DNA from: a virus
Taxonomy: Duplodnaviria; Heunggongvirae; Uroviricota; Caudoviricetes
Direction: 5' to 3' (one strand)
IMG/VR virus record: IMGVR_UViG_2529293044_000006
Location: 1-24,435 of that record
DNA length: 24,435 nucleotides
This document shows positions 6,001-12,000 of the stretch, piece by piece. A program made the position numbers. Positions within the stretch are counted from its first letter, which is position 1. The number at the start of each line of letters is the position of its first letter.

Positions 6001-9000
6001 CTTTCAGCTCATCAAGGCGATCGCGCACTGTCTTGCGGTTGGCATCAATTAGCTTTGGAATTTCCTTCAGTTCAGCAACAAGGTCTTTGCCAAGACCATC
6101 GAGATATGTTTTCGTCTGCGCAACTTTATACGCCAGAGAAGCGATCTCCTTTCTGCCCTTTGCCGTTGTGATATCAGGCACAAAGGACATAACTTCACGT
6201 TCAACCTTTTGAAGGATTTCTTCAATCTGGTCGGCAGACTGAAATACAGTCATTGCATTTGCTTTTTCAATAACAACTAAATCTGTTACTTCACTCATAT
6301 ATCCTCCATCAAAAAAATTGCCCTCACATTGGAGGGCAAAGAAGATTTCCAATAATCAGAACAAGTCGGCTCCTGTTTAGTTACGAGCGACATTGCTCCG
6401 TGTATTCACTCGTTGGAATGAATACACAGTGCTTATTCGTACTAATAAAACACCCAATTTTCTGTTTCTTGGTTGTGTCCAAAGTTATATTCAATATCTG
6501 GTGTTGATGTATCAATATTCTTCATCCCATCAACAAGAGTTGATACAACAGCCAAATCTTGTTTGATTCTCATCAAATGGTATTTCTTTCGGCGCAATAA
6601 ACTTTCAATGGCAAGTTTCTTCGTCGGGAATGCAAAAGATCTTTCTGCATTTTTTGCTACTTTCTTAATTGCATATCTATTTCTCCTTTGTTTCCATTCC
6701 TGTAACCACTGATTTGGTGCTGGTTTAAAATTAACAATCCAATGCGCAGGAACCAACCATGCATAATGCTCTGTCTGATGAAAAGCTATATATTGAAGTG
6801 CGAATATTTTGATCCCATCTTCTTCAACTGTCGCCTGGAATCTCCAGAAAACAGGCATTCCATCATGTTCAGTTTCTGATTCAGGAAAAGGTACGCTCCA
6901 TGATTTTGTCATATCTCACCTCAAATAAGTGGTTTGCTGCCTAATTTCATTTTCTGGCGACCAACACAAGTCATCTTGCTGTCAGTTGTTTGGATTTCCG
7001 GTAGCCTGCCGCGTAAATGGCTACGTTTGGAAGACATACACCAGTTTCTGGTTGCTTATGTCCAAACTCATTCGCGTACACAATGGCCGCTCGCTCCAGA
7101 TTGCGTCTGTATTCTTTCTGTTGCCAGATCACGTCCTGTGCTATGAACTTAATTGGCTTAGCGTCTTCTATGCGCTCAGGCGTTTCGTGAGTACCTTTAG
7201 CCTGAATCTGCGCTCTGCTTAGAGTAGGGCGGTGTAATACTTCTGAACTTATTGCTTCTTCGCGGGCCAGTACGCCGTTAGCTAATGCCTTTGCCTTTAA
7301 ACGCTCACGACGACGAGAACGTGAATTGCCTTTGAACTGAGTTCTGCGTGTCATATAGACCTCCTGATGAACTTTGGTGGTGTGGTCGGTGGGAGACCCA
7401 TTTCGACCTGTTTCGGCCTACTTCAATTCGGCAATAGTCCCGCAGGCCTCGCCGCTTTACGTGCGACATATTCCCGTCCATGAACCCTTCACCACACCCC
7501 AAAGTTCACTTTGGTTATTGCGCTTTGTCAGCGCCGTAGATTCTTGCTTGAATCGTTGTATATTCACCGCCCTGGTGAGTAGTGCGTCCTGCTGATGTGT
7601 TTAGTATCACCGCCAGTGGTATTTGCGTCAACACCGCCAGAGATAATTTATCACCGCAGATGGTTATCTGTATGTTTTTTATATAGATTTATTTTTTTGC
7701 AGGGGTGTGTGGCTTGGGAGGTGATCGAGAGATCTGAATTGCGATGTTTAGTGAGTTGTATCTATTAATTTTCAAATAAATACAATTGGTTATGTGTTAT
7801 TGGGTGAAGGGGATCGTGAGGTAAAGAAAACCCGGCGCTGAGGCCGGGTTGTGTGTTACTTAAGAACGAGTCCGTTTAAGGCATCAAGGATTTTGGAAAC
7901 ATAACTTCCAAAAATGTAGGCGCAAAATGCGAACACGAAACTGACAACGACCGCAGATGCCTTGATGGTGATTTTTGCTGAGCTAATGCTTGTCTCAATA
8001 CCTGACAGACGAGAATCTACAGATTTTATATCTGACTTTACTTCAGCGAGATCGCGCTTGATGTATTCAACATCAGACTCTAGCTTTGCAACTCTAGCCT
8101 CAAGCATGTTACCTCCGCCGTTTCCTCCACCATGCCGTGAGTATGCATCATCAGTGGAATAGTGTCCAATTGGGCGAGATATGTTTTGATTTGGACGAAG
8201 CTGAGCAACCTTGTTATCTAAACTCATCGCGAACTGATCCTGTTATCTTCACGTCAAAAAACGAACTTTTTACATCAATTACTTCGCCTTTATCAGGATT
8301 AACCAGTGATGCTCTAACTTCGAATATCCCAGGCTTGATAATTTTCACCCTTGGGAAGTTAATTCTCATAGAAGTTGATACGATGGTTTCTCCATCGTTG
8401 GCTTCTGCTACCGTAAAAAACTTATGGTTGGAGTACAGTTTTGTGTCAATTGGTATCGGTATTTCTTGAGCATTGAAAACCTCAATGCCTATGGAATATT
8501 TTTTTGTAGCCTTAAGGCCGATAAAAAAAGCGCCAAATGATAGATCCACTTCATGGGAGTCTTTATCCATTTCATAGATAAGAACTGGAGTTACTGGGTT
8601 GCCTTCATCCATCGCAATCGGAATGATATAAGAAATACGTTCTTTAATCATTTACGTGTTATCCAAACGTCTCTTCAGGCCACTGGCTGGCGATAACTTT
8701 CCCCATAACGGAACAACTCTCATTGCATGGGATCATTGGGTACTGTGGGTTTAGTGGTTGTAAAAACACCTGACCGCTATCCCTGATCAGTTTCTTGAAG
8801 GTAAACTCATCACCCCCAAGTCTGGCTATGCAGAAATCACCTGGCTCAACAGCCTGCTCAGGGTCAACCAGAATTAACATCCCGTCAGGAAAACTAGGTT
8901 TGGATCCTGTTGGCGCGGTCATGGAATTACCTTCAACCTCAAGCCAGAATGCAGAATCACTGGCTTTTTTGGTTGTGCTTACCCATCTCTCCGCATCACC

Positions 9001-12000
9001 TTTGGTAAAGGTTCTAAGCTCAGGCGAGAACATCCCGGCCTGAACATGAGAAAAAACAGGGTACTCATACTCACTTCTAAGTGACGGCTGCATACTAACC
9101 GCTTCATACATCTCGTAGATTTCTCTGGCGATTGAAGGGCTAAATTCTTCAACGCTAACGTTGAGAATTTTTGCAAGCAATGCGGCGTTATAAGCATTTA
9201 ATGCATTGATGCCATTAAATAAAGCACCAACGCCTGACTGTCCCATCCCCATCTTGTCTGCGACAGATTCCTGGGATAAGCCAAGTTCATTTTCTTTTTT
9301 CATAAATAGCTTTAAGGCGACGTGCGTCCTCAAGCTGCTCTTGTGTTAATGGTTTCTTTTTTGCGCTCATACGTTAAATCTATCACCGCAAGGGATAAAT
9401 ATCTAACACCGTGCGTGTTGACTATTTTACCTCTGGCGGTGATAATGGTTGCATGTACTAAGGAGGTTGTATGGAACAACGCATAACCCTGAAAGATTAT
9501 GCAATGCGCTTTGGGCAAACCAAGACAGCTAAAGATCTCGGCGTATATCAAAGCGCGATCAACAAGGCCATTCATGCAGGCCGAAAGATTTTTTTAACTA
9601 TAAACGCTGATGGAAGCGTTTATGCGGAAGAGGTAAAGCCCTTCCCAAGTAACAAAAAAACAACTGCATAAGTAACACCGCTATTTTCACAATGGACATT
9701 CGTCCTACGTCGCTGACAAAGCGAGTCCCAATATATCTGACCAACTAAGGCCATATGCGTTTCCACGCATACCTTTCAACTAACTATTCACTATTGGAAA
9801 TATTAAGAAATGACACAAGCAAGTTACAGCAAGCCAACACAGCGAGAAATTGATCGCGCAGAAACTGATTTACTCATCAACCTGTCAACGCTTACCCAGC
9901 GCGGTCTGGCAAAGATGATTGGCTGTCATGAATCGAAGATAAGCAGAACGGACTGGAGATTTATTGCTTCGGTCTTGTGTGCTTTCGGAATGGCATCAGA
10001 CATAAGTCCGATTAGCAGGGCTTTTAAGTATGCGCTTGATGGACTCACCAATAAAAAACGCCCGGTGTGCAAGACCGAGCGTTCTGATCAAATACAAATG
10101 GAATTTTAATAACATCCAACGAGGTAATTATATGCGAAAAACGCAGGAAAATAAACGCGTTAATCACCGAAAAGATGTGCTACGTGACCAGTTTTATCAG
10201 GGGGTTAATCCAGCAATAGCTGTGCCACTGAGAGAAATACTTAACAGGTACAAAACTTCGGAGAAGTCAAAATGAGCATGAATCTTATGGCTAAGGCCAT
10301 GAATATAAAGGTTGGCAACCCACTGAGAAAACTGGTTCTGATTAAACTTGCCGATAACGCCAATGATAATGGCGAATGCTGGCCTTCATATCAACATGTC
10401 GCTGACCAGTGTGAGGTGAGCAGATCGACAGTAAAAAGTCACATTAGGGCGCTGGAAGAGATGGGGCTTTTGAAAAGGGAATTCAGAAGAAAAGGAGAGC
10501 TTAACCAGTCAAACGTTTTTTATCTGACGCTGGATAATGCACAACAAATACAACCAGAATCAGGTGGGGCAGGAGCTGCCCGGGGTGGGGCAGGAGCTGC
10601 CCGGGGTGGGGCAGGAGCTGACCTAGGGGGTGGGGCAGGAGCTGCCCCCAGAACCTATCACTCTTTTGAACCAGTCAATGAACCTAAAAACATTATGTTC
10701 GAACATGTCCGAACAGAGAGTGAAAAAACTCCTGACCGTCACGAAGAAACCGACAAGGCATTCGAGGAAATATTCTGGTGTGCAGGCATGCGGAAAGCCG
10801 GGAAGAAAAACGCAGCTTCGGCATTCAGAACACAGTTCAGGGAATGGCGTAAAACTACCAGGGGTACGGCAAGCGAGTTTGCCACGATGCTGGCAGAAGA
10901 CATCGCATGCAGGAATGGTAAGCAGTTCGGATTCGACAGGTTGTTACCATCGAGCTACCTGAACGGTCAGCGCTGGAACGACGAAAAGCCAGAAACCATT
11001 CAACCACAATCCAAACCATCATCCGCAATCACCGTATCGAAAACTGGCTACGTGTTTTTCGACAGGTGAACCATGAAATCAAAAATCAAATCGCTACTGG
11101 TCGCTGGTTATAACCACGGCTGGTTAAGTATTTCGTTTGTCGATTTCTGGTTTAAAAATCTCAATCTGAGGGAATCATGACGCCAAGTGAACTTAGCGAC
11201 CTGCTTTGGGCGCAGGTTGACAGGGTGGCTCCGCACCTGTTGCCAAACGGCAAGAAAGAGGGGCATGAGTGGGTTGCCGGTAACGTCAACGGTGACAAGG
11301 GAAACAGCCTTAAGGTCAACCTTAGCGGCAAGAAAAAATGGGCTGATTTCGCTGAGGGAGACGGCGGTGACATGCTTGATTTGTGGATGGCATGTCGAGG
11401 AATTAACCTGCATCAGGCTATGCAGGAAGCGAAAGCATTTCTCGGTATCAAGGATGACGATCACCATTTCGATGCCAAACGTGAGAAGAAATTCTCCAGA
11501 CCTGATCGCAAGAAAATCGCCCGCTACGTTACCAGAACAGAATCCCATCTTGAGTACCTGCAATCGCGTGGCATATCGCCAGAAGTCGTAAAGCGCTACG
11601 AGGTTGTCAGCGGCAAGGTGTGGAATGGAGAACGAGAACTTGATGCACTGGTGCTTCCGTACAAACGCGATGGTGAGTTGTTGCAGGTCAAGCGAATCAG
11701 CACTGAGCGACCGGACGGGAAGAAAGTCATTATGGCAGAAGGTGATTGCGAACCTTGTCTGTTCGGATGGCAGGCTCTGGACGCTGGCGTGAGGGCGGTT
11801 GTACTTTGCGAAGGCGAAATTGATTGTATGAGCTATGCGCAATACGGCATCTCGGCGTTATCCGTGCCGTTTGGTGGCGGGAAAGGCGCTAAGCAGCAGT
11901 GGATTGAGTTTGAGTATCACAACCTCGACAGGTTTGAGGAAATATTCATCTCGATGGACGTTGATGATGTTGGTCGTGAAGCCGCAAGGGAAATCGCAAG

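Follow-up and report, generated by a model that had tools for sequence, protein, structure and literature searches.

The DNA analysed here, called the window, is a stretch of 24,435 nucleotides from a virus of the Caudoviricetes (IMG/VR record IMGVR_UViG_2529293044_000006). The features identified in its regulatory part are, in order of position:

6971..7354, minus strand: N antiterminator gene (127 aa, HK97/H-19B/933W type), an intact open reading frame with AGGAGG upstream of the ATG
7368..7509, minus strand: long-range stem in the N leader (RNA fold), with arms at 7368-7387 and 7491-7509, its end adjoining the N Shine-Dalgarno
7520..7554, minus strand: nutL (RNA fold), with boxB at 7520-7534 (GCGCUGACAAAGCGC) and a small hairpin at 7539-7554, 4 nt upstream in the RNA
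7584..7597, minus strand: left joint, a 14-nt block (CATCAGCAGGACGC) at the PL transcript start (PL +1 to +13), 100% conserved in lambda, HK97, H-19B and P22
7603..7665, minus strand: PL promoter with OL1-3, having -10 GATACT and -35 TTGACG and overlapping OL1 (promoter scan and equivalent HK106 annotation)
7605-7621, 7629-7645 and 7649-7665, PL region on the minus strand: OL1, OL2 and OL3, respectively, each 17/17 lambda
7829..7850, minus strand: Timm-like intrinsic terminator at the left edge of the variable rex slot (terminator scan and HK106 Timm annotation)
7856..8651, minus strand: two-gene cassette in the rexAB position, encoding proteins of 145 aa (8214-8651) and 123 aa (7856-8227)
8659..9370, minus strand: cI of lambda/HK97 type, interrupted (alignment to E2348/69, HK97 and lambda)
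9377..9446, no strand: OR region with PRM (minus) and PR (plus, TTGACT-17-GATAAT) (promoter scan)
9381-9397, 9404-9420 and 9428-9444, no strand: OR3, OR2 and OR1, respectively, each 17/17 lambda and annotated in HK106
9471..9671, plus strand: cro, its product identical to lambda Cro at 66/66 residues, with the right joint in its last codons
9679..9724, plus strand: nutR (RNA fold), with a boxA-like CGCTATTTT at 9679-9687, a spacer hairpin at 9694-9705 and boxB at 9710-9724 (UCGCUGACAAAGCGA)
9810..10109, plus strand: cII of H-19B/HK97 type (Pfam Phage_CII), with the next mosaic junction within or just after it

Searched against Rfam at gathering thresholds, the window as a whole gave no family, and ARAGORN returned no tRNA or tmRNA in it.

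Exact matching was used to compare the operators with those of lambda. All six proved to be full-length matches in lambda order and spacing, an arrangement that cannot arise by chance, and the statement of the initial annotation that OL1-3 and OR1-3 match lambda was borne out, with none of the matches being partial. Identity to lambda is also complete over the 90 nt that begin at OR3 and end immediately ahead of the cro start codon, and Cro of the window scored 119 bits against the Pfam Cro profile. Sequence specific to lambda is restricted to PL/OL (7598 to ~7850) and to cI-OR-cro (8663 to ~9664). The operators, PR, the OR region and Cro are thus those of lambda and the Timm region is 87% identical, whereas N, nutL and nutR are unrelated and rexAB has been replaced. 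The distance from OL3 to OR3 is 1.73 kb; that of lambda is longer, at about 2.3 kb.

The cI gene as sequenced has lost one A from each of two adjacent A-runs (about 9293-9295). Translation from the ATG in the lambda position (9370) gives 27 codons with a stop at codon 28, the remainder of cI being intact. With the two A residues restored, 234 of 237 residues are identical to lambda CI and 236 of 237 to HK97 CI, the allele being that of HK97 and of a prophage in enteropathogenic Escherichia coli (EPEC) O127:H6 E2348/69 except for one change. Because cI is frameshifted, the switch in the sequenced copy may not repress. It is conceivable, if rather doubtful, that the window derives from a decaying prophage whose circuit no longer operates, with a null cI and a PL operon cut by an insertion sequence. 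Besides the early stop in cI, points in favour are the IS21/IS100-like element with a nested IS3 (2709-5919) that interrupts a PL-operon gene, and several further 1-nt differences, located in late-region genes, from a 99.4% identical E2348/69 prophage. Set against this, no damage is seen in N, cro, the operators or either nut site, and the truncating cI allele was found in none of the 618 complete E. coli genomes with the cI segment and at none of 52 IMG/VR loci. An exact-pattern scan of GTDB representative genomes for the deletion allele was also empty, a result which is uninformative as one genome is sampled per species. Furthermore, it takes two separate 1-nt contractions, in neighbouring A-runs, to produce the cI defect, and every other homopolymer difference between the window and E2348/69 is likewise a contraction in the window, which together form the pattern of homopolymer under-calling. 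The two-base loss is therefore most likely a homopolymer sequencing artefact, and the frameshift needs verification before the prophage can be regarded as repressor-defective. The possibility of decay concerns activity only, and the identity of the region is unaffected by it.

The composite IS element cuts the PL operon ~1.7 kb downstream of PL and, given this insertion, the prophage may be decaying.

The product of the N gene scored 57 bits against the Pfam N_peptide family (cut-off 27.9) and possesses the arginine-rich motif RSRRRER at residues 12-18. It shares 99.2% identity with N of 933W-like Stx phages, 97.6% with that of HK97 (124/127) and 96.8% with that of H-19B, and its C-terminal tail is 95-100% common to the otherwise different N proteins of HK620, VT1-Sakai and mEp213. 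A PDB sequence search with N identified no relative with a solved structure; the sole match, citrate lyase, was rejected as noise (E 1.5). The RNA of the N leader (7340-7596) folds at -84.8 kcal/mol (z -3.4), with 0/200 shuffled sequences folding as well, and its long-range stem may be a counterpart of the RNase III stem in the lambda N leader.

RNA folding at 7520-7534 (minus strand) and 9710-9724 (plus strand) confirmed the GACAA-type boxB loop that had been proposed for both nut hairpins, each on a 5-bp stem and each preceded by a small spacer hairpin. Within the window there are exactly two copies of the boxB core GCTGACAAAGC, one at nutL and one at nutR, each on the transcribed strand. 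These sites are identical to those of H-19B, HK97 and HK106, and differ from the lambda boxB sequences (GCCCUGAAGAAGGGC at nutL and GCCCUGAAAAAGGGC at nutR). The identity to H-19B nutR runs from boxA through boxB, and two hairpins have been reported in H-19B nutR (PMC3526286). With regard to boxA, the site at nutR has two mismatches to the consensus, lies 22 nt upstream of boxB and alone is no better than chance, and no match with two or fewer mismatches was found in the nutL leader upstream. A boxA consensus scan yielded 68 matches where 66 were expected, so boxA is not callable from the motif alone.

Segment identities to lambda, HK97, H-19B and P22 were as follows, in that order.

N gene DNA: 58, 97, 97 and 61%
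N leader with nutL: 64, 97, 72 and 63%
PL-OL: 94, 97, 62 and 69%
cI DNA: 97.5, 99.7, 59 and 62%
OR-PR: 100, 99, 65 and 65%
cro: 100, 98, 61 and 62%
nutR to cII start: 62, 96, 99 and 63%

These values, along with the alignments to the four phages, agree with the initial annotation in that neither the N gene nor the nut sites resemble those of lambda and that the left joint separates PL from nutL and the right joint cro from nutR. On the left, H-19B diverges to the right of the conserved 14-nt block and lambda diverges to the left of it. The right joint is at ~9648-9671, in the last cro codons, where the bases cease to be of lambda type, and identity to H-19B starts, at ~9664. The cII gene that follows is 91% identical in DNA to that of HK97, 87% to that of H-19B and 66% to that of lambda.

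The initial annotation had described N and boxB as P22-type, with an N protein resembling P22 gp24 at its C-terminus. A direct recombinant of lambda and P22, in which N and the nut sites came from P22 or a close relative of it, is nonetheless very improbable. The resemblance itself is real: nutL boxB is a 15/15 match to P22 nutL boxB (as it is to the boxB annotated in HK106), nutR boxB combines the P22 loop with another stem, the arginine-rich motif is shared in part (GN..RR.ER in both proteins) and BLASTP aligns N with gp24 at 20/30 identical residues (67%; E 3e-10). That alignment covers the last 30 residues only. Full-length homology to gp24 was not found, the global alignment having about 39% identity, the middle of N being unrelated to gp24 and the DNA identity of 61% being at background level. 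DNA homology to P22 is confined to short pieces, with BLASTN against its early region giving 66 nt at 74% at the 3' end of N and short cI/c2 pieces only; these results and the background identities of 61–63% refute a direct P22 origin, and it is the N proteins of HK97, H-19B and 933W that are 97–99% identical. In addition, P22 has a canonical boxA (CGCTCTTTA) close to boxB, 12 nt upstream at nutL, and lacks the extra spacer hairpin of the window; such a boxA ~10-12 nt upstream of boxB is absent at both nutL and nutR here. The description as P22-type is therefore right only in a loose sense, as the likeness goes no further than the boxB hairpin, a portion of the arginine-rich motif and the tail at the C-terminus; the DNA partner is HK97/H-19B (96-99%), and the gene name should read HK97/H-19B/933W-type N.

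The regulatory part of the window is closely matched by HK97 (NC_002167 / AF069529), whose early regulatory region has been described (Juhala et al., 2000) and where the elements follow one another as they do here: gp45, N, nutL, PL/OL, Timm, slot, cI, OR (annotated in the record), cro, nutR and cII. Identity to HK97 is 97.1% over 6600-7846, where it stops at the left edge of the rex slot, and 97.3% over 8659-10105. The differences are in the slot between Timm and cI, which is occupied by gp48/gp49 in HK97 and by a different two-gene cassette in the window, in the nutR boxA (CGCTCTTTT in HK97 vs CGCTATTTT) and in the PL -35 (TTGACA in HK97 vs TTGACG). The wild imm-lambda phages HK106 and mEp234 (EF120461 and EF120460; Degnan et al., 2007, PMID 17376085) are 96.8-97.7% identical to this part of the window, with intact cI and a slot containing hicAB and one further ORF. 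The annotation of the HK106 record follows the order of the window (N, nutL boxB, PL, OL1-3, Timm, cI, PRM, OR3-1, PR, cro, nutR boxA and boxB, PRE, cII), and HK106 combines an H-19B-type N with GACAA boxB at both nut sites. In contrast, HK544 and CL707, which are also wild imm-lambda phages, pair an N of lambda type with a GAAGA/GAAAA boxB at each nut site. From this pairing it follows that N, nutL and nutR change together around one immunity cassette. H-19B and 933W share the N-nut system (Neely and Friedman, 2000, PMID 11123680; PMC3526286; PMC4499122), with N 96.8-99.2% identical, identical nutR boxA-boxB and nutL boxB, and a two-hairpin nutR, but have their own repressor, Cro and operators, with identity at a background of 59-65% across cI-OR-cro.

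Another close arrangement is that of the E2348/69 prophage at 1.559 Mb (NZ_CP059840.2), which is 99.1% identical over 6600-10139 and carries the same slot cassette, with cI intact, no IS insertion in the PL operon and different replication and late regions. Between 9785 and 10139 the window changes E2348/69 prophage type, and from cII onward it follows the other prophage, at 725 kb of NC_011601. That the lambda part stems from vector contamination or an assembly chimera is extremely unlikely: vectors often carry lambda cI/PR/PL expression cassettes, and OR-cro matches lambda at 100%, but CI departs from lambda at three residues, the PL-OL spacer differs from lambda and natural prophages, in E2348/69 and many other genomes, match the arrangement without interruption over 3.5 kb, which refutes it.

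Among 5426 complete E. coli genomes, 111 have the left joint and 118 the right joint, meaning that about 2% of these genomes contain the hybrid architecture. The left joint was also present in 52 IMG/VR contigs, of which 46 have a full-length N (at least 95% identical to that of the window in 45) and 41-42 hold lambda-type cro and cI. An exact-pattern scan of GTDB representative genomes for the boxB-to-OL1 joint was empty and, with one genome sampled per species, uninformative.

Taken together, the region 6600-10105 is very probably, judging from its sequence, the early control region of an HK97/HK106-type lambdoid prophage, in which an immunity cassette of lambda specificity lies inside an antitermination module of H-19B/HK97/933W type. 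The cassette comprises PL/OL1-3, the variable slot, cI, the OR1-3 region (with PRM and PR) and cro; the module consists of N and nutL to its left and nutR to its right. Such a combination of lambda switch and HK97-type N/nut is already known, having been sequenced and annotated and being common in E. coli, and is ordinary lambdoid mosaicism. As the region excluding the rex slot is 97% identical to HK97, the hybrid joint is inherited from a widespread lineage, with no genome-specific exchange needed. The proposal that specificity modules were exchanged at very fine scale is upheld as to the position of the joints.

The least ordinary element of the region is the slot cassette at 7856-8651 rather than the hybrid switch. 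Its two genes are 78% identical in nucleotide sequence to genes 44/45 of Salmonella phage epsilon34, which occupy the same slot, and by their position would share the PRM transcript with cI. Their products match phrog_5893 and phrog_6136, both without known function, and gave nothing above Pfam cut-offs; XhlA was rejected for the 123-aa protein (19 bits against a cut-off of 34.7), as was the sole weak PADLOC match, CorA-like (E 0.004). AlphaFold2 models depict the 145-aa protein as a beta-sandwich and the 123-aa protein as one long helix with a hydrophobic C-terminal end. A Foldseek comparison of the 145-aa model with the PDB returned only generic Ig-like, carbohydrate-binding and RhoGDI sandwiches (TM 0.4-0.56), allowing no functional assignment. 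By analogy with RexAB, it could be speculated that the pair is an undescribed prophage exclusion or abortive-infection system, a rather unlikely prospect, and the genes are a reasonable candidate for defence-system screens.

Drawing on work on lambda and H-19B, intact CI would bind the six operators, shut off PL and PR and autoregulate PRM. Following derepression, the nut sites would be present on the PL and PR transcripts, N would bind the GACAA-loop boxB hairpin through its arginine-rich motif, and N with NusA would render RNA polymerase resistant to downstream terminators. The role of this motif has been described (PMC3526286), and the function of H-19B N/nutR, including the arginine-rich motif mutants R15 and R18, and N-dependent read-through downstream of nut have been reported (PMC3526286; PMC4499122). 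N would have to fit both nut sites, and CI and Cro the operators, so only exchange points at PL/nutL and cro/nutR would be expected to keep a working phage. Short conserved blocks are situated at both, namely the 14-nt block where the PL transcript starts and the stretch around the cro stop codon, and homologous recombination at these could swap the immunity cassette as one unit.

The region is a clean natural illustration of modular lambdoid design, with little importance beyond illustration, as this modularity had already been established with HK97 and the wild imm-lambda phages and nothing new becomes testable. What it illustrates is an immunity cassette set between two short conserved linkers, which can be combined with N/nut systems of differing specificity, the three elements N, nutL and nutR always changing together.

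A lambdoid prophage has its early control region at 6971-9724, where the features are arranged as follows:

6971-7354, minus strand: N (127 aa)
N leader including nutL (242 nt)
7520-7534, minus strand: nutL boxB, GCGCUGACAAAGCGC
PL, overlapped by OL1-3
7605, 7629 and 7649: OL1, OL2 and OL3, exact lambda 17-mers
7829-7850: Timm-like terminator
7856-8651, minus strand: two-gene cassette in the rexAB slot (the interval between the Timm-like terminator and cI), consisting of two small ORFs, 7856-8227 and 8214-8651
8659-9370: cI
9381, 9404 and 9428: OR3, OR2 and OR1, exact lambda 17-mers, with PRM and PR, between cI and cro
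9471-9671: cro
nutR, right of cro
9710-9724, plus strand: nutR boxB, UCGCUGACAAAGCGA
9810-10109: cII, just beyond the coordinates of the region

A BLASTN comparison was made of positions 6600-10200 with lambda, HK97, H-19B, P22 and Escherichia coli E2348/69 (an EPEC O127:H6 strain), and semi-global alignment was conducted segment by segment. The two approaches were concordant.

Percent identity of each segment by segment-wise semi-global alignment, in which 57-63% is the score of unrelated segments
Segment: lambda, HK97, H-19B, P22
N gene: 58, 97, 97, 61
N leader with nutL: 64, 97, 72, 63
PL-OL: 94, 97, 62, 69
cI: 97.5, 99.7, 59, 62
OR-PR: 100, 99, 65, 65
cro: 100, 98, 61, 62
nutR to cII start: 62, 96, 99, 63

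The lambda character of the operators proposed in the initial annotation holds for all six sites (6/6), each being an exact match placed in the order and spacing of lambda. Identity to lambda is also complete over the 90 nt that run from OR3 to just short of the cro start codon, and for the Cro protein (66/66 residues). The OL1-OL2 spacer (7622-7631) has two base changes that give a PL -35 element of TTGACG, differing from TTGACA in lambda and HK97 and from TTGGCA in E2348/69.

The N protein shares 99.2% identity with that of 933W-like Stx phages, 97.6% with that of HK97 and 96.8% with that of H-19B. Its identity to gp24 of P22 is 39% globally, the likeness being limited to the arginine-rich motif (GN..RR.ER) and the C-terminal tail. 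The gp24-like C-terminus that had been described is indeed present (67% identity over the last 30 residues, E 3e-10); however, because this tail is also carried by the otherwise dissimilar N proteins of HK620, VT1-Sakai and mEp213 (95-100%), it represents a common sub-module and is no marker of P22 ancestry. Both predicted boxB hairpins were found at their expected positions, each folding to a stem of 5 bp capped by a GACAA loop, and the 11-nt boxB core occurs in the window exactly twice, at these two sites on their transcribed strands. The nutL boxB is identical to that of P22 nutL (NC_002371) at 15/15 positions. The nut sites of P22 possess a canonical boxA (CGCTCTTTA) 10-12 nt ahead of boxB, whereas a boxA scan found no boxA-like sequence in nutL of the window and a boxA-like CGCTATTTT 22 nt upstream of boxB in nutR. 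Also unlike P22, nutL and nutR each have an additional small hairpin 4 nt ahead of boxB; two hairpins have been described for nutR of H-19B (PMC3526286). The label "P22-type" agrees with the boxB loop, the nutL boxB and the gp24-like tail, but not with the DNA (61-63% identical to P22) or with N itself (97-99% identical to HK97, H-19B and 933W). Given the N identities, the common tail and a nut layout unlike that of P22, it should be replaced by HK97/H-19B/933W-type, a relative of the P22 system.

The N leader RNA (minus strand) is predicted to form a stem of ~19 bp (7368-7387 with 7491-7509) enclosing ~100 nt (fold z -3.4), the end of which adjoins the N Shine-Dalgarno sequence. We take this long-range stem to resemble the RNase III-sensitive stem in the lambda N leader, of which it may be the counterpart.

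Alignment places recombination joints between PL and nutL and between cro and nutR, as had been suggested. At the left joint, identity to H-19B extends from N through nutL to 7597 and is lost across the operators beyond, and identity to lambda extends from the operators back to ~7584, decaying further left. The shared block, 7584-7597 (CATCAGCAGGACGC on the transcribed strand, PL +1 to +13), matches lambda, HK97, H-19B and P22 at 100%. On the right, lambda-type bases stop and H-19B identity starts at ~9664, within the last cro codons. The partner had been named as P22, which both BLASTN and the segment alignments leave at background; an HK97/H-19B-type partner is found instead. From the positions of the joints, the immunity cassette is therefore bounded by two short conserved linkers, which is presumably the unit defined by the classical imm434 substitution.

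The two proteins of the rex slot (145 and 123 aa) match phrog_5893 and phrog_6136. Neither gave a Pfam match above cut-offs, and the sole PADLOC match was a weak one to a CorA-like protein (E 0.004). The 145-aa protein is confidently predicted to be a beta-sandwich (pLDDT 86) with generic fold matches only, and the model of the 123-aa protein shows disorder at the N-terminus and, after it, a single long helix whose end is hydrophobic. The same cassette occurs in 12 of 52 IMG/VR loci. Genes 44 and 45 of Salmonella phage epsilon34 form such a pair in the same slot (DNA 78% identical), and both its rexAB-like position and its absence of matches are remarked upon by the authors of that genome. Mosaic diversity is known to be concentrated in the interval from Timm to cI (PMC8585504, citing Degnan et al.).

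As sequenced, cI carries A6-G-A4 in place of the A7-G-A5 of lambda, HK97 and E2348/69 (9287-9300, minus strand). Since one A is missing from each adjacent run (~9293-9295), CI is truncated after 27 codons; the remainder of the gene is intact. This could be a real null allele. However, the allele was present in none of the 618 complete E. coli genomes having this segment of cI and in none of the 52 IMG/VR loci, two independent contractions are needed to produce it, and all other homopolymer differences from a 99.4% identical E2348/69 prophage are likewise contractions on the side of the window. Such a pattern is consistent with under-calling of homopolymers, and a sequencing artefact is thus the likelier explanation, although unproven. 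More 1-nt differences from the E2348/69 prophage occur at 17117, 18071, 21081, 21092, 21625 and within 21034-21470, and the SASA esterase ORF (19477-21045) is shorter than its E2348/69 counterpart; these may reflect either decay or sequencing error.

Elsewhere in the prophage, one gene of the PL operon, encoding a coiled-coil protein (remnant ORF 5906-6352), is split by a composite insertion at 2709-5919. This insertion consists of an IS21/IS100-like element with imperfect terminal repeats and CAGCTGCTG on both flanks, with an IS3 element nested at ~4334-5591. Another mosaic junction lies at 9785-10139 (cII), left of which the window tracks the E2348/69 prophage at 1.559 Mb of NZ_CP059840.2, and from cII rightward a different E2348/69 prophage (725 kb of NC_011601). 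Right of this junction, the O and DnaB-like genes give way to genes for a helix-turn-helix replication protein and for a toprim primase-helicase of 626 aa. Compared with E2348/69, the gene of the 265-aa replication protein (10272-11069) has gained 21 nt in frame (10563-10583), amounting to one extra GGAGAAR-type repeat. The nin/Q region carries an lpxR-like lipid A deacylase gene (15884-16843, minus strand) as a moron, and so does that of the E2348/69 prophage.

By comparison with lambda and H-19B, CI bound at OL and OR would repress PL and PR and regulate PRM. Upon induction, the PL and PR transcripts would carry nutL and nutR, the GACAA boxB of which would be bound by the arginine-rich motif of N; N of H-19B requires its residues R15 and R18 (PMC3526286). 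N together with NusA would then modify RNA polymerase for read-through of terminators (PMC3526286, PMC4499122).

The arrangement is already known as the HK97/HK106 type and is widespread. HK97 is 97% identical across all of 6600-10105 except the Timm-cI slot, and its record has the same gene order with OR annotated. The closest complete match is an E2348/69 prophage (99.1% identical over 6600-10139). Of 5426 complete E. coli genomes, 111 contain the left joint and 118 contain the right one. The nutL boxB adjoins OL1 in 52 IMG/VR contigs, 46 of which have a full-length N (45 at ≥95% identity to that of the window) and 41-42 lambda-type cro and cI. The record of HK106 (EF120461, from the deposit of Degnan et al.) is annotated with N, nutL boxB, PL, OL1-3, Timm, cI, PRM, OR3-1, PR, cro, nutR boxA/boxB, PRE and cII, in the order of the window and with the same boxB sequences. 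In HK544 and CL707, from the same record set, the lambda immunity cassette is accompanied by an N of the lambda type and by lambda-type boxB in nutL as well as nutR. One immunity cassette is therefore naturally paired with at least two N/nut specificities, and N, nutL and nutR are seen to co-vary in these sequences, the signature that would be expected of a matched protein-RNA set.
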